A DNA stretch of 21,761 nt, taken from assembly GCA_034717975.1 (NCBI GenBank), contig JAYEMF010000025.1, positions 1 to 21,761 on the forward strand, read 5' to 3'. Each line of letters opens with the position of its first letter. Positions within the stretch are counted from its first letter, which is position 1. This document shows positions 1 through 6,000 of the stretch, one piece after another. This DNA is from Campylobacterota bacterium (GTDB taxonomy: Bacteria; Campylobacterota; Campylobacteria; Campylobacterales; Sulfurimonadaceae). The position numbers are program-made.

Positions 1-3000
1 AAATTGTGATAACATTGTCATAATTTAAATTTATTGACAATATTAGATAAATAGAAAAAATCTCTTTATATACCTCCTGCCAGACAAATTTTAGAACAAA
101 TAGTGAAATTATCAAAGAGTTTTTGACTGTATGGTTAAAAAATAATTTTATCTGTTAACTATAGGAAAATTGAATTATTAACTTTTCTTAACTATAAGAT
201 AAATTAATTTATTTACTATTTTGTAATAATTATTTTTTTTTATATTTATTTAATTTTTACACATGTAATATTCCTGCAATCCGGATGGAGAATCTATGCT
301 TAAGGGTAATTATATGCAAATGAATCGTCGTGATGTATTGAAGTTAGGTGCAGTAGGTGCAGCCGCCACAGTGGCAGCAGCAACACTTACTGGTTGTTCA
401 GGAAAAGGTGGAGCTGCGTCTCCGGAAGCCGGTGCTGCTGCAGGTGGTGCCAAGATGCTTGGCAAACATCAGATAGTTGTTATTGGTGGTGGTATCGGTG
501 GTCTAACTGTTGCCAACAATCTCAAGAAAAAGAACAAAGATGCAGATGTTCTTGTGATTGAAAAAAATGATACCTTTATGTCTTGTCCTGTTTCTAATAC
601 ATACCTCGGCAAATGTGAAGGTATGACACTTAAAACGTTTGTTTTCGATTATGCGCAACCGATTGAAAAACATGGTTATAACTTCCTCTCTGCTGCAGTA
701 AATGGTATTGATCGTGCTAATAAGGTTGTTCAGACGACAAGTGGTGCGGTAGGTTACGATATCCTTGTTCTCTCGCCGGGTATCGCCTATAACTACGAAG
801 CTCAGTTCCCTACATGGTCTAAAGAGAAGATTGCACATGTTAAGCGTGTAGCTCCGGCTGCATTGGTACCAGGTAGCGAGCATGTTATACTTGAACGTAA
901 TCTGAATGACATGGAAGATGGTGATGTAATCATTACTATCCCATCAGGCAAATTTCGCTGTCCTCCGGCACCTGCAGAACGTGCATCTATGATTGCTTCC
1001 TTCATGGAACAAGAGGAGATCGAGGGTAAAGTTGTCCTGATGGCCGAGGGCGGCGGTTTCGCTAAGAAAGCTGCTTTTCTTGAGTCTTGGAAAGAGATCT
1101 ATGGCGACAGAATCGAATTTCTTCCATTCTCCAAAGCGACAGATGTAGATCTGAAGAAGAAGGTCCTGACATACGTACAACAGGTCGACACTGGTAAAAA
1201 AGATGAAGATGGCGATCCGATTATGAGTGCCGTCACAAAAACACGTAAGTATGAGGTCCTGAACCTTATTCCACTGAATAAAGCAAATCCGGTCATTGAA
1301 ATGGCAGGACTTGAAACAACTAAAGATACTTTCGGGAAAGTCAAAATGAATGGCTGTTCTTTCCAGACAAAAACCGATGCTGATGTTTACGCTGTCGGTG
1401 ATGTTGTTGGACACGCTATCCCGCCAAGTGGTCAGACTGCGAACTGGGCCGGTAAAGAGTGTGCCAGAGAGATCTCTGCACGCCTGAATGGTAAAACCTA
1501 TAAACTTCCGGTTGAAGCTGCGCCGGTCAAAGCCGGTAATGTCTGTTACTCAATGGTCGGTACTTCACCTGAAGAAGCGATCATGGTTACACACGATTTC
1601 AGCTGGACAGGTGCGGTTATCAAAGGTAAAGGAAACGTTCCTAAAGATGCTAAAAGCGGTAAGTACCGTTCAAAAGGGACGGCTAAAGCACTGCGTGACT
1701 GGTATCGCGGTCTTATGGGTGATCTTTTCAGCTAAGAAGTTTTTTAAATTATACGCCATAGGAACAAAGTCCCTATGGCTACGCTTATCCGGTGCCAACC
1801 AACATTTTACGCCAACAAATGGCATAAAACACACGTGGCACTGAACACACGACGGCTAAGGCTGCTTCGGCAGCAAGCCCTCGCACCCTTGGGTTACTTA
1901 ACTAAACAGTTTTCACTTATGTTTTAAAGATTTATATAAAGAGTGCTTCCGAAAGTACTTTTTGTAAAGTCTTTACAACTTAAAAAGGAGTCTTATGGAT
2001 AGAAGAAATTTTCTAAAAGTTGCCGGAGCAACTGGCGCGTTGGTTGCAGTTTCACCTTCATCAATTACGCAAAAGCTCTATGCAAGTAATGGCATGATGT
2101 ATACTGCGTATGAACGCGTTCAGCTGGTTGATGGTAATGGTGCCCCCATTAAAGCGAGTCAGTTGAAAAAAGAGATCAACTATGTCTTTAATTACCCGCA
2201 TGTAGGGACACCTGCACTTTTGCTGAACCTGGAAGATGCAACAGCCACAGATGTAAAGCTGACTGCAGAGACAGGTGAGGAGTATGTCTGGAAAAGCGGT
2301 GTTGGAAAAGAGCGAAGTATCGTTGCTTATTCGGCGATCTGTTCACACCAGTTGGCGCACCCGACACCAAGTGACAGTTTCTTGCAATATGTTCAGAAAA
2401 CCAAAAAAACGATGGCTTATGATACAGGGGGTGTCATCGTCTGTTCATCCCACCTTTCGGCATTTGATGCAAAAGCGGGTGCCAAACGCCTTTCAGGGCC
2501 AGCTGTTGATGCCTTGGCTTCTGTTGTGATTGAGGTTGCTGATGATGATTCTGTCTGGGCAGTCGGTGTACTGGGAGTAGACCGCTTCCATGATTACTTT
2601 AAATCATTTAAACCGGAATTTAAAGAGTTTTACGGCGGCAAGCGCAAGGCTAAGAAATTGGTTAAAATCAGTGCTAAGACAGTCGTGCTTAACGAGTACA
2701 CCAAAGAGATCATTCAATACTAAAGAGGGATAGATGAAAATAGTAAAAGCAATAACAGTTGCTGCACTGATAAGCAGTAGTTTTTTATATGCTCAGACCG
2801 ATGGAAAGAAGAGTCAAATGGCTAAGGACATGGGTTCTATGCTTGGTGCAATGTCGATTATCCAGACAGGCGGTTTTTATAATAATAGCAAGATGATGAA
2901 AAAAGGGGTGATTCAATTAAAAGAGGGACTTACCTCTTTGCGTGCTGCCAATGCAAAAGACTACCTTCCTCATGATCAGGAGTATGCCAACAGATTTGCG

Positions 3001-6000
3001 AAGAAGCGTGCCGATATGATTGCCATGTATGCGGATGATCTCGTGACCTCTCTTGATGATAAAGATATGGATTCGGCGCTTGAAAACTATTCACTGATTA
3101 TGAAACAGTGCTCGTCGTGCCATCTTCGTATCAGAAGTTGGTAATAGGTATGTTTAAATAAGCCGGTCATAGGCCGGCTTATCCTCTGTTTTATGCTTCG
3201 AAATTAATTCCCGAAGCCTTCTCTTTGTAGCTGTCAAATGGCTCTTGTTTCTGCTTATCGATCTGTAAGAAGCTGTCGAGTTCCTGGTTTTTATCTTTTA
3301 GCATAGAGTCAAACTCATTCTCTGTTACCGGCTTTTGACCGTTGAATTTATCGAGCAGCAGATTTGAACTGCCAATGACAACGAGATAACTCTCATCCGC
3401 ATAGTCCATCATCACAACACGGTTTTTCTGATCAAGGGCTTTTTGAAAACGGATCGTGACACCATCGGGTTTCTCTTTTTTAGCGCTGCTGAAGAGCCAT
3501 GGTTTTGAAGTGCCCTCAGATGTTGAAGCAGAGATCTTGCGTTTAAGAAGAAGCAGGATAATAATTCCGATGATCAAGATGGCTATAACGATGTAATAGC
3601 TCTGTGTGTACTCATCCTCCGGTTTGGTCGGTAGCTTGGCGGTAGTCTGTGCGGCTGGAGCCAGAGTATCTGTTTTAGCACTGGCAGCAGCTTTGGCAAA
3701 ACGCAGACGCAGGCCATAAGCATCAGAAGTTTTCGACGCTTGCAATATAACGCTTCCCGGGACTGTTGCAATGATCTGTGTGTGTGATCCGACCGGGGTG
3801 ATTGCGAGTTTACTGAGAAATGGTGAAGAGACTTTTTTTAGTTTAGGTGATTCAATTGTGGCTGAGTCGAGTTTGATGATGATCTTTCCGCTTTGTCTGC
3901 TCTGACGAATGTTGCCATTATAGGGCGTATCGAAGGTTAGCATGATATCGGCGCGGTCGGTACGGTCATAGACATTGTAACTTAGGATTTTGGAGGCCAG
4001 GAGCAGTGATGGGAGTAACAGTATTAAGGCAAACAGTCTCATAGACGCTCTTTTGAAAGATAATAGAGAACAGCACTCGAATCGAGGACCTCATTGATAC
4101 GGATGGCAAGATTTTTCTCAAAAACCATTACTTCACCTTTACCTATGATTCGGCCATTGACATAGGACTCAACACTTTCACCGGCAGGTTTTTCAAGGTC
4201 GATGACTGATCCTTTTTGGAGCTTAAGGATATCGGCAACACTCATGCTTGTCTCTCCAAGATCGGAGATAAAGTTAACTTCCATGTCCAGCAGACCTTCA
4301 TAGTCCATCCAATCGAGCTCAGCCTTCGGGTTAAAATATTTAATTTCATGCTCTTTTTCGGTTTCCGTCAGTTCATCAGCCATTTTCTACTGTTCCTTGA
4401 TGGCGATCATAATCGCTTTGTCATCGATAGTTATTGTCTTGAATGCATCGGAAGAGAGATCGAAATTTCCATCTTTTTCAAAATGAGGTGTTGAGATGGT
4501 GAAGTTAAGATCACTCTCTTCAGCGGCAAGCACTTTGGCACTTCCAATGATCATATTGGCGGTCTCAAGCGCCATGTCCTGTAAAGTCTCTTCATCACTC
4601 TCATCTTCACCCAGAAAAAGCTCTGCAATCATCTGTATCATAGCTTCATTATAAGCCGTATAGATACGATAGTTCGCTCCATCTTCTTTGGCTATGTCAA
4701 TATAAGCAATTAGTGTTCTCGTTTCTATTTTTTTATCCGAGAGGGTATGTGGTTGGCGTATTTGATGAATACAAAAATTCTCTGCTGCTTTCGCCATTAA
4801 CGTGATCATACGGCTTCCTGTCTCTTAACTTGATTAGGAAAGATTATACGCAATGGAATGTTTGATTTGTCTTAGGGATATATTAGACCTCTTGCAGGGA
4901 GCTTTGTTGCACTATTAAAGTTTATTTTGATTATTCTGTATATGTAATTCATTATTTATGCACTATAATGGAAGAAGTTAATAAAGGAGTTTATAATGTT
5001 CCGCAACCTCTCCATCAGCAAGAAAGTCCATATTCCGTTAATTGTGGCGATTGTCCTGGGTTTTATCATCATCGTTGTGAACTATTTTATGTCGATTGAC
5101 GAAATCCGAAAAGATGTTTATAGCGAACAGAAGAGTGAGCTTGGCTCTTTTTTTGAAGAAGCGATGTCAGCCAAGGCCAATATTGGTATAACCAATGCTA
5201 TCAATATCAGTCGAAACAGTGCAGTAGTCACTGCTTTGACAGCGAATGATAGAGAACTGGCTATAGAAAGCTTTTCTACGCTGATGAAGGATTTCAAAAC
5301 ACACACCAAGTATCAAAATATCAAAATCCATATTCACGATAAAGATGTCAGGAGTTTTTTGCGCGTATGGAAACCTCAAAAGTTCGGTGATGATCTACGT
5401 GGATTCCGAAAGACGATAGTGAGTGTTAAACGGGATCAAAAGCCGATCGTCGGTATTGAACTGGGCGTTGCGGGGTTGGTAATGCGCGGGCTTGCCCCCG
5501 TCTTAAAAGATGGAGCATATATCGGTTCTGTAGAGTTCATGCAGGGGCTTAACTCCATTGTCAAAGATGCCAGGAAAAAATTTGGGACAGATGTCGTCAT
5601 TGTGATGGATAAACGTTATCTCTCCATATCTAAAGGATTGGCATCAGCACCGGAACTTGGTGATTTTGTACTGGCGGTACGCCCGGGCGTAATTGACCAG
5701 AGCTACTTTACATCGCTGAAAACCATCGATATCAGAGATACCAAAAAAGCTCATCGAAACGATACTCACCTAGTGGTCTCATCCCCTATTGAAGATTTTT
5801 CCGGAGCTGTTGTGGGGTATGCTCTGGTTGGAAAACCGCTTGCGGTAGTTGAACAGGTGATCGCCAAATCGGAAGACTCCTTGATGAGGCAGGTTCTTAT
5901 TATGGCGGTGATGGATGTGGCAATTTTGATCTTCCTGATTATTGTAATGCGTGTTGCCGTATCAGCACCGATCCGCCATCTTGATGAAGTTGCCAGGGAG

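Follow-up and report, generated by a model that had tools for sequence, protein, structure and literature searches.

The locus and its genes

The window, the whole stretch of 21,761 nucleotides that was analysed, starts at a contig end of a Sulfurimonadaceae member with Sox genes. The three ORFs that an earlier note had placed here were each recovered on the + strand at the coordinates it had given and are listed in the table with the elements around them. Since only 295 bases of contig precede the flavoprotein gene, the upstream neighbour of this gene is out of view.

Features of the flavoprotein-Rieske-cytochrome block (positions count along the window)
Feature	Position	Strand	Description
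AT-rich non-coding leader	1..295	+	between contig end and flavoprotein gene
Flavoprotein gene	296-1735	+	ORF, 479 aa
Intergenic gap	1736..1994		259 bp, unusually long; short dispersed repeats and a hairpin
Rieske protein gene	1995-2723	+	ORF, 242 aa
Small cytochrome gene	2734-3144	+	ORF, 136 aa
Terminator-like hairpin, T-rich tail	3158..3182	+	11-pair stem, 6 G-C pairs, tail CCTCTGTTTT

No ORF of at least 60 aa lies within the leader. It includes a sigma-70-like match at 34-61 (10 of 12 positions); the eight promoter-like matches found are no excess over shuffled sequences (mean 7.5). A GGAG sits 6 bases 5' of the flavoprotein ATG. The gap between the flavoprotein and Rieske genes contains a hairpin at 1755-1779 and two repeat segments, each with copies on several of the genome's other contigs and neither with a match in related loci. 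In related operons of the window type the two genes are about 15 to 230 bp apart; the gap of 259 bp is peculiar to this genome and not conserved among relatives. The separation of the two genes by this gap and its hairpin was counted against assuming co-transcription. The cytochrome gene starts 10 bases past the Rieske stop codon, and the terminator-like site then closes the block.

The three proteins

By sequence, the flavoprotein is a member of the FccB/SoxF family in which every FccB hallmark tested is kept. The domains attributed to it in the earlier note were all present above the Pfam cut-offs (FCSD_central, 1.5e-24; Pyr_redox_2, 7.9e-12; FCSD-flav_bind, 3.7e-6) and are the same set as in FccAB of Allochromatium vinosum (1fcd), Thermochromatium tepidum (3vrd) and Thioalkalivibrio (5n1t). 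FccB chains are also the closest solved structures (5n1t_A, 4.4e-45; 1fcd_A, 1.8e-38; 3vrd_B, 3.2e-37), and the scores of 132-158 bits against these PDB chains indicate a distant relative. Further likenesses to FccAB are the Tat signal, the periplasmic location and the cysteines: C97, C222 and C417 align with C42, C161 and C337 of 1fcd_A, by which C97 is the predicted FAD-binding cysteine and C222 and C417 are the predicted redox pair. C222, E228 and C417 are invariant in an alignment of 27 flavoprotein sequences, E228 falling in a conserved CPPAPxER motif.

The TAT_signal match of the flavoprotein (19.7 bits) is under the cut-off of 22.7; the motif NRRDVLK is nevertheless present, and after it come a lipobox-like LTGC with Cys34 and a linker rich in Gly and Ala. 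The LTGC may be a true lipobox, as suggested by the conserved [LM][TSA]GC in the clade to which this flavoprotein belongs. The same clade has its own insertion of roughly 20 residues, and these two features set the flavoprotein apart from FccB. A further difference from FccAB is that Rieske and four-helix cytochrome genes stand in the window where the gene for the FccA haem subunit would stand.

All the features previously described for the Rieske protein (Tat signal, Rieske domain, CSH and CSSH motifs) were found. The TAT_signal and Rieske matches in Pfam, at 25.5 and 22.6 bits, are above the cut-off, and the ligand motifs are C116-S-H118 and C150-S-S-H153, with C116, H118 and C150 invariant across the Rieske alignment. 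The fold, as modelled with AF2 (pLDDT 91.6), is of the respiratory AioB/bc1 type. The top Foldseek match of the model was AioB (E 2.8e-8, TM 0.80 by target, 22-26% identity), and AioB chains were matched weakly in a PDB sequence search (E 1.4e-4 to 1e-3). Motif resemblance suggests that the centre may be 'high-potential'.

The earlier label 'AioB-type' therefore holds for the fold and not for the family. Both are Tat-exported Rieske proteins, and AioB has a soluble cytochrome c as its electron acceptor, according to the title of entry 8ed4. However, the window protein has an insert of roughly 16 residues between its ligand motifs and a C-terminal extension of roughly 50 aa, kept across its family and ending in Tyr, which AioB does not have; its neighbour is a flavoprotein, whereas that of AioB is a molybdoenzyme. 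The top NCBIfam hit, at 88.7 bits (cut-off 582), is the archaeal SoxL2 model, and arsenite_ox_S scores 46.3 bits against 95.65. No AioA was found in the genome (best score 53 bits, cut-off 359). Assignment as a true AioB was rejected because of this absence and of the score under the family cut-off. The genome has a single further Rieske gene, on contig C9.

The 136-aa protein is predicted, from its motif and a weakly matched fold, to be a secreted monohaem cytochrome c with a four-helix bundle. Its N-terminus is hydrophobic, and the AF2 model (pLDDT 79.4) has four long helices, the last of which carries the C-terminal CSSCH (C126, C129, H130). The Foldseek matches, which include cytochrome cb562 and cytochrome c', were weak, none of them reaching E 0.04, and an Atlas feature search led to a cluster with PF01322 in 37% of its members. 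The predicted bundle and the C-terminal CxxCH are as in class II cytochromes c (c', c556) and cytochrome b562, and Met33 of helix 1, invariant in the cytochrome alignment, is a possible sixth ligand, as in class II. Unlike these, the protein is under the Cytochrom_C_2 cut-off (E 0.0075, 17.7 bits against 26.5) and its haem binding is putative.

Conservation of the gene block

The FccB-like gene had previously been placed beside the Rieske gene in two relatives. This adjacency extends to 38 of 38 Campylobacterota loci (nine of nine genome loci and 29 of 29 further loci), although such counts overstate the independent observations because many of the loci are close kin. Of the 29 further loci, 27 have the FccB-like gene upstream of the Rieske gene and in the same orientation; in L108 and L120 it is downstream. 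As had been claimed, no FccA-like gene lies beside the flavoprotein gene; this holds for the relatives with a visible upstream flank. Of 80 distant metagenome loci, 18 also have the two genes side by side; where neither gene is truncated, they are 13-133 bp apart. The surrounding genes vary from locus to locus and the block itself holds together. The cytochrome, present in 27 of the 38 Campylobacterota loci, is an addition made in Campylobacterota. No CxxCH ORF within 4.5 kb shares the strand of the block in 17 of the 18 linked loci outside this phylum, the one left over being L084 with its Sox cytochromes, and the conserved core therefore consists of the flavoprotein and the Rieske protein.

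A FastTree phylogeny was built from 111 distinct Rieske proteins. A single branch with 100% support parts the 55 rows with a linked flavoprotein gene from the 56 orphans (one change), and none of 500 label shuffles matched this split. Every one of the 55 distinct rows of the linked subfamily shows the adjacency, even where Rieske identity falls to about 35%. The gene is more widespread than the 9 of 60 genomes and six families reported in the earlier note: it occurs, with 34-82% identity, in 30 of 400 other Campylobacterota genomes, which represent 8 of 14 families. Among 401 Campylobacterota genomes it is present in 31 and the flavoprotein in 62, and all 31 fall within the 62. The Rieske gene is thus found in none of the 339 genomes without the flavoprotein, and 31 of the 62 flavoprotein-bearing genomes are without such a Rieske gene.

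The absence from half of the flavoprotein-bearing genomes would suit a different arrangement, in which the Rieske protein and the cytochrome are not flavoprotein subunits but a free-standing periplasmic shuttle with several donors or acceptors, and merely have a sulfur-oxidation regulon and neighbourhood in common with the FccB-like genes. We consider this unlikely. The sister (orphan) Rieske subfamily is indeed encoded alone amid housekeeping genes (ammonium transporter, leucyl/phenylalanyl-tRNA protein transferase, HrpA or Cu/Zn superoxide dismutase genes), and for 30 of 62 orphan loci 1350 bp or more of upstream sequence is available and contains no FccB-like gene. The Rieske-cytochrome pair adjoins either of two deeply separated flavoprotein clades, only about 30% identical, which a shared shuttle explains as well as a fixed subunit. 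The same arrangement would fit a cytochrome paralogue at C108 (30% identical) and the long gap with its hairpin, but the gap is specific to this genome and filled by dispersed repeats. Adjacency throughout the linked rows, even at low identity, and the absence of the Rieske gene from every flavoprotein-free genome argue against it.

Related clusters and the link to Sox

The flavoprotein-Rieske pairing is not wholly new. A dhsU1-Rieske-dhsU2-soxXYZAB cluster is drawn for a Sulfurihydrogenibium-like 'large sausage-shaped bacterium' in a 2012 paper (PMC3504083). That bacterium is likewise a sulfur oxidiser in which the Rieske gene directly adjoins an FccB-like gene, and its DhsU1 shares with the window flavoprotein a Tat signal and the conserved cysteines. 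The published cluster differs in encoding two flavoproteins and in having its cytochrome-like gene upstream; the single flavoprotein of the window is from another clade, and the class II-like cytochrome there is encoded downstream. Loci L071, L084, L085 and L087 share the layout Fcc-Rieske-Fcc and have Rieske proteins of the window's subfamily; what links them to the published cluster is their layout. Recombinant DhsU1 alone, a monomer, showed sulfide-dependent reduction of horse cytochrome c with no Rieske protein (PMC3504083), which makes the Rieske protein dispensable in vitro. The earlier claim of novelty is thus weakened as to the pairing; the paper assigns the cluster's Rieske gene no role.

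SoxYZ genes (Pfam SoxY, 5e-31; SoxZ, 1e-22) form part of the block in 11 of the 38 Campylobacterota loci, where they separate the flavoprotein gene from the Rieske gene or come right after the latter. They are absent from the window's block, from 27 of the 38 loci and from 17 of the 18 linked metagenome loci. Metagenome locus L084 has the order Fcc-Rieske-Fcc-cytochrome-SoxY-SoxZ-SoxA. The second FccB-like gene that had been reported on contig C24 of this genome was found at 13211-14551 (33% identity), adjoining soxC, soxD, soxY and soxZ. Neither the recurrent SoxYZ link nor the two-clade pattern of the flavoproteins had been noticed in the earlier note.

We know of no Rieske partner described for SoxF flavoproteins. 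SoxF (Paracoccus pantotrophus, Chlorobaculum tepidum) is a monomeric, Sox-linked member of the FccB family with no bound haem subunit (PMC3504083). The block could likewise be a Sox accessory system, in which a SoxF-like flavoprotein acts on SoxYZ-bound sulfur and not on free sulfide: sulfide would be loaded onto SoxY, or SoxYZ re-activated, while the Rieske protein and the cytochrome carry the electrons off. This would suit the Pfam-confirmed SoxYZ genes in the block, the continuation of L084 into SoxA and of the published cluster into soxXYZAB, the sox neighbours of the second FccB-like gene, and the stimulation of thiosulfate oxidation in vitro by a soxF-encoded flavoprotein (reference cited in PMC3504083). 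Since most blocks, including that of the window, have no SoxYZ, and DhsU1 oxidises free sulfide (PMC3504083), we regard it as improbable; it is also compatible with the explanation favoured below and does not exclude it.

Proposed function

The earlier note had proposed a sulfide dehydrogenase in which a Rieske protein takes the place of FccA. The gene pairing, the tree split and the FccB residues support this in part; the family label and the novelty do not stand as given. An FccB-type sulfide dehydrogenase in which a Rieske centre replaces FccA, with the small cytochrome as electron outlet, is the explanation that we favour, with modest confidence.

Action on another substrate (polysulfide, an organic thiol or a metalloid) or in the reductive direction appears very improbable. 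The window flavoprotein does belong to a clade deeply separated from the assayed DhsU1-like one and with an insertion of its own, and in fold the Rieske protein is similar to the small subunit of arsenite oxidase. However, the sulfide-dehydrogenase catalytic residues are all kept, the genome has no arsenite oxidase large subunit, and the host, a member of the Sulfurimonadaceae, has Sox genes. A Rieske centre of the respiratory type would, moreover, be too oxidising for polysulfide reduction.

In the proposed sulfide dehydrogenase the flavoprotein would be exported by Tat and probably lipid-anchored. Sulfide would be oxidised at the Cys222/Cys417 redox pair and the covalently bound FAD, and the two electrons would pass one by one to the [2Fe-2S] cluster of the Rieske protein, which would take the place that FccA has in FCSD. 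In Campylobacterota the Rieske centre would then reduce the small four-helix cytochrome c, and this in turn cytochrome c-dependent terminal enzymes; two haem-copper oxidase family genes of this genome are possible electron sinks. Where SoxYZ is part of the block, the oxidised sulfur may pass to SoxY. The consistent recurrence of the flavoprotein with the Rieske protein in sulfur oxidisers probably marks an uncharacterised variant of the enzyme.

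Organization of the locus

The most economical reading of the three-gene block is an FCSD-type enzyme in which a Rieske centre stands in FccA's place. The earlier note had placed the genes for a flavoprotein, a Rieske protein and a small cytochrome in series, and all three ORFs are found on the + strand at exactly those positions. Upstream of the flavoprotein gene there are just 295 AT-rich non-coding bases before the contig ends, and this stretch contains no ORF. The genes 3' of the block (fliN, cheX, a chemoreceptor gene, a TauE-family gene, uvrA, polA and a fused cytochrome c synthase gene) are unrelated to it, and the chemoreceptor and cytochrome c synthase genes showed no link with the block. 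Rfam gives no match within the window. The genome is 99.9% complete, in 149 contigs.

Position of the block, its internal sites and other features of the window
Feature	Position	Strand	Remark
Flavoprotein ORF	296-1735	+	479 aa
Tat motif, LTGC and Gly/Ala-rich linker	296-460		within the flavoprotein ORF
Flavoprotein-Rieske gap	1736-1994		259 bp, includes a hairpin
Gap segment with hairpin	~1753-1785		repeated on other contigs
Second gap segment	~1863-1892		repeated on other contigs
Rieske protein ORF	1995-2723	+	242 aa
CSSH motif	2442-2453		within the Rieske ORF
Rieske terminus	2718-2723		Tyr
Small cytochrome ORF	2734-3144	+	136 aa; starts 10 bases past the Rieske gene
Terminator-like hairpin and T-rich tail	3158-3182		3' of the cytochrome gene
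Chemoreceptor	4996-7128		dCache_3 sensor and C-terminal zinc-binding CZB domain
Fused ResB-CcsA cytochrome c synthase	15870-18980		1036 aa

Short dispersed repeats make up the long gap that separates the flavoprotein gene from the Rieske gene. The hairpin segment of this gap occurs again on contigs C15, C13, C26 and C111 of the same genome and the second segment on C86, C130, C13 and C15, with both adjacent on C13. None of the related loci matches the gap sequence, and the corresponding gap in relatives measures about 15 to 230 bp. We therefore reject the gap as a conserved regulatory element.

The flavoprotein

By every feature tested, the flavoprotein is a member of the FccB/SoxF flavin-subunit family. 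It passes the Pfam cut-offs for FCSD_central (86.8 bits, cut-off 27), FCSD-flav_bind (27.7, cut-off 26) and Pyr_redox_2 (45.6, cut-off 26.1). The nearest solved structures are FCSD flavin subunits (5n1t_A, 4.4e-45; 1fcd_A, 1.8e-38; 3vrd_B, 3.2e-37), and SQRs match far more weakly (1e-7 or worse). In the HMMER alignment, from which the 1fcd residue numbers were counted, C97 aligns with Cys42 of 1fcd_A, which holds FAD covalently, and C222 and C417 align with the redox-active pair Cys161 and Cys337. No variation is seen at C222, E228 or C417 among 27 flavoprotein homologues. Among characterised systems FccAB is closest: the flavoprotein fits its flavin-subunit family, but no gene for FccA, the partner that defines the holoenzyme, was found in the block or in the 295 bases up to the contig end.

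The N-terminus carries the Tat motif NRRDVLK, a twin-arginine signal for periplasmic export, whose R11 and R12 are kept in at least 90% of the 27 homologues; the Pfam TAT_signal model scores 19.7 bits, under its cut-off of 22.7. After it come LTGC and a Gly/Ala-rich linker. The pattern [LM][TSA]GC is conserved in the window's flavoprotein clade, and the second flavoprotein of the same genome (on contig C24) has ISGC at this position. Judged by the lipobox consensus, LTGC would be a lipobox and the flavoprotein a Tat-exported lipoprotein. An insertion of about 20 residues is peculiar to the clade.

The Rieske protein

The second protein has a Tat signal and the Rieske ligand motifs C116-S-H118 and C150-S-S-H153, and passes the PF00355 (Rieske) cut-off narrowly (22.6 bits against 20.3). 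C116, H118 and C150 are invariant in our 39-sequence Rieske alignment; H153 is His in most of the family, while a subset has Asp or Glu aligned there and His one position on. The single other Rieske gene of the genome is on contig C9. The best NCBIfam match is archaeal SoxL2 (TIGR03171, residues 3-198), which at 88.7 bits stays under its curated cut-off of 582.1.

The AlphaFold model (39 homologues) has a pLDDT of 91.6. In a Foldseek comparison AioB chains rank first (E 2.8e-8, TM 0.80 by target, 22-26% identity), followed by Sulfolobus Rieske II and then bc1/bcc Rieske subunits. Identity with AioB is nevertheless rejected: TIGR02694 (arsenite_ox_S) gives 46.3 bits against a cut-off of 95.65, no AioA is encoded in the window, and the best score for the AioA model TIGR02693 in the whole genome, 53.3 bits, lies below the cut-off of 359. 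From the Foldseek ranking and the missed family cut-off, the protein has the respiratory Rieske fold yet is not AioB. Relative to AioB, residues are inserted between its two ligand motifs, and its C-terminus is prolonged by a helical stretch of about 50 residues, which is kept across its family.

Past the second motif the window protein reads CSSHLSAFD, and most of the family CCAHxSxYDP. Both resemble CPCHGSHYD, the motif of high-potential bc1 Rieske proteins, and it is from this resemblance that the Rieske centre may be called 'high-potential'.

The probable small cytochrome

The third protein has a hydrophobic N-terminus and a CxxCH at residues 126-130; C126, C129, H130 and Met33 are invariant in 16 homologues. 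Its model shows four long helices (pLDDT 79.4). Foldseek returned no match at E <= 0.001; the weaker rows include cytochrome cb562 (TM 0.73-0.78 by target) and cytochromes c', as well as unrelated helical bundles. Pfam Cytochrom_C_2 (PF01322) scores 17.7 bits, under its cut-off of 26.5. A sequence search of solved structures gave nothing meaningful, and a word-index search found only 12 close homologues. An Atlas feature search led to Campylobacterota clusters and, as a lead only, to one cluster with PF01322 in 37% of its members. The likely reading is a monohaem cytochrome c of a class II-like type, with His and Met as haem ligands.

The same genome contains a paralogue of 141 aa (C108:2789-3214, locus L014), 29-30% identical, that keeps the C-terminal CxxCH and the conserved Met. 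Its gene comes after two NapG/NapH-like ferredoxin genes and a WD40 beta-propeller gene.

Conservation of the pairing in Campylobacterota

The Rieske gene is present in 31 of 401 Campylobacterota genomes sampled, representing 18 of 64 genera. On contigs taken from one genome per species, an FccB-like gene lies upstream of it in all nine loci and the cytochrome gene downstream in eight; the ninth, L005, stops 148 bases past the Rieske gene. In a further set of Campylobacterota loci the FccB-like gene adjoins the Rieske gene in 29 of 29 (upstream in 27, downstream in L108 and L120). The two sets overlap partly, since some of their genomes are identical or nearly so (for example, L006 and L102). 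The block stays intact while the flanking genes vary between loci. No CxxCH ORF was found among the upstream genes near the block in the related loci L001-L004, and the sole haem gene of the window block is that of the four-helix cytochrome 3' of the Rieske gene.

A profile search detects the flavoprotein in 62 of the 401 genomes, including all 31 with the Rieske gene; none of the 339 genomes lacking the flavoprotein has this Rieske gene. The other 31 flavoprotein-bearing genomes do not have it.

Across the 38 Campylobacterota loci of the two sets, the cytochrome gene occurs in 27 and SoxY/SoxZ in 11. This last number bears on the most serious rival variant, in which the flavoprotein has a SoxF-like role on SoxYZ-bound sulfur: the presence of SoxYZ within 11 of the 38 blocks speaks for it, and it is compatible with the same electron path.

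Pairing beyond the phylum

The Rieske family is of modest size: in an all-against-all profile search it numbers 282 clusters at E <= 1e-3 and, at E <= 1e-10, 172. A scan of metagenomes that took nine distant members (set A2) as its seed yielded 80 loci, biased to the non-Campylobacterota part of the family, in which neighbours were called by tblastn and from same-strand ORFs. An FccB-like gene lies beside the Rieske gene in 18 of the 80. Four of these have the order Fcc-Rieske-Fcc, continued in L084 by cytochrome c, SoxY, SoxZ and SoxA. No FccB-like gene was found in the remaining 62, although in 30 of these the upstream sequence spans at least 1350 bp. Since 17 of the 18 linked non-Campylobacterota loci (those with an adjoining FccB-like gene) have no same-strand CxxCH ORF within 4.5 kb, the conserved core is the flavoprotein with the Rieske protein. 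The four-helix cytochrome is matched in none of the 80 metagenome loci and is thus a Campylobacterota addition.

Linked and orphan Rieske proteins (the latter encoded without an adjoining FccB-like gene) are distinct. In a FastTree phylogeny of 111 distinct proteins, one branch with 100% support parts 56 orphan from 55 linked rows, a split equalled in 0 of 500 label shuffles. The second motif also follows the subfamilies: CCAH or CSSH in linked members and CC[AS][ED]HS in orphans. The orphan sister subfamily (62 of the 80 loci, L017-L094) consists of Tat-Rieske proteins about 230-240 aa long that have a C-terminal Cys and are encoded alone among housekeeping genes. Recurring neighbours are an ammonium transporter or HrpA upstream and leucyl/phenylalanyl-tRNA protein transferase or a periplasmic Cu/Zn superoxide dismutase downstream; a NUDIX gene is also found. 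ORFs of 410-419 aa directly 3' of the orphan Rieske genes in L081, L086 (5229-6461) and L082 (5279-6538) have no Pfam match (E <= 0.01 for L081, E <= 1e-5 for the others). A free-standing Rieske-cytochrome shuttle is possible, although it fits poorly with the invariable adjacency of the flavoprotein gene in the linked subfamily.

In 79 of the 80 metagenome loci and in L124, an extra Cys adjoining the ligand cysteine (CCAH or CCxEH) is accompanied by a Cys at the C-terminus. The Campylobacterota Rieske clade has CSSH, and its terminus is Tyr (31 loci) or Leu, Val or Ala (five loci). This joint loss of both cysteines suggests, from sequence, a candidate disulfide that would tie the C-terminus to the cluster loop in the CCAH/CCxEH members. 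Features that we find to be specific to Campylobacterota are the added class II-like cytochrome, the flavoprotein clade with a putative lipobox and a Rieske protein without the two extra cysteines.

Two flavoprotein clades

In a quick IQ-TREE of 54 rows, the Rieske-linked flavoproteins form two deeply separated clades. All rows of clade A are from Campylobacterota, the window's flavoprotein among them; clade B holds the C24 copy, Sulfuricurvum-type proteins and all metagenome rows. The C24 gene, which the earlier note had described as a second FccB-like gene in a Sox island, does lie beside soxCD-soxYZ (C24:13211-14551). In the Sulfuricurvum loci L006-L009, the flavoprotein is of clade B (identity 49% with the C24 copy and 30% with the window's flavoprotein) and the Rieske protein is 63-65% identical to the window's. 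Either clade can therefore accompany the Rieske-cytochrome pair, at times within one genus. Such a pattern could have arisen by differential loss in the descendants of an Fcc-Rieske-Fcc ancestor, or it could reflect one partner shared by the two flavoproteins. The clade A flavoprotein may use a different substrate.

The flavoproteins of L006-L009 have Gly (FMSGF) in the column of the FAD-binding C97 and keep both redox cysteines. Because of this Gly, their FAD would not be held covalently through the C97 equivalent.

Proposed function

From the genes, motifs, folds and neighbourhood observed, we infer binding between the partners, potentials, direction of electron flow and substrate as follows. 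Sulfide would be oxidised at the Cys222/Cys417 pair and FAD, and electrons would be handed one by one to the [2Fe-2S] centre. In Campylobacterota they would pass on to the small cytochrome and from there to cytochrome c-dependent terminal enzymes. The genome has two genes of the haem-copper oxidase family.

Several findings count against this reading. DhsU1, a flavoprotein encoded directly beside a Rieske gene in a Sulfurihydrogenibium-like bacterium, is reported in PMC3504083 to be a monomer that alone reduced horse cytochrome c with sulfide. The Rieske gene is missing from half of the flavoprotein-bearing genomes, and the sister subfamily has no linked flavoprotein gene. The hairpin-containing gap in this genome also counts here; it is, however, filled with short repeats found again on other contigs and absent in relatives.

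The earlier note had read the three genes as a new periplasmic dehydrogenase of sulfide or another reduced sulfur compound, with the Rieske centre replacing FccA. The gene pairing is strongly supported, the function and the novelty less so. The layout itself is not new, having been published once, for the Sulfurihydrogenibium-like bacterium, as an uninterpreted gene map (PMC3504083); there, sulfide:cytochrome c oxidoreductase activity is shown for DhsU1 only, a distant relative. A role for the Rieske partner of an FccB-type flavoprotein was found in no paper by full-text search outside subscription journals.

We offer a fuller proposal tentatively, and think it rather doubtful that all of it holds. 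The linked Rieske subfamily would be the obligate electron-accepting subunit of a widespread two-subunit, haem-free flavoprotein-Rieske sulfide dehydrogenase, found from Aquificae-like bacteria to Campylobacterota. The Campylobacterota form would be a periplasmic wire (lipid-anchored flavoprotein, Rieske protein without the stabilising cysteine pair, class II cytochrome c) that carries sulfide electrons past the quinone pool and directly to oxidases or denitrification enzymes that depend on cytochrome c. With SoxYZ in the block, oxidised sulfur would be loaded onto SoxY, providing an entry of sulfide to Sox.

Significance

FCSD is a textbook sulfide-oxidising enzyme, yet FccA is missing from many sulfur oxidisers that have FccB-like genes. 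Sulfidic waters, vents and aquifers are habitats in which Sulfurimonas, Sulfuricurvum and their kin predominate. The variant is real and widespread as a gene pairing, and would re-wire a known enzyme only incrementally. If the proposal is true, a Rieske centre as built-in acceptor would be a new combination of known redox modules, and the linked Rieske subfamily would serve as an annotation marker for this enzyme type. Blocks that include SoxYZ allow a direct test of the connection, long under discussion, of FccB/SoxF flavoproteins with the Sox carrier. Such an acceptor would also change the picture of the wiring from sulfide oxidation to respiration in these bacteria.
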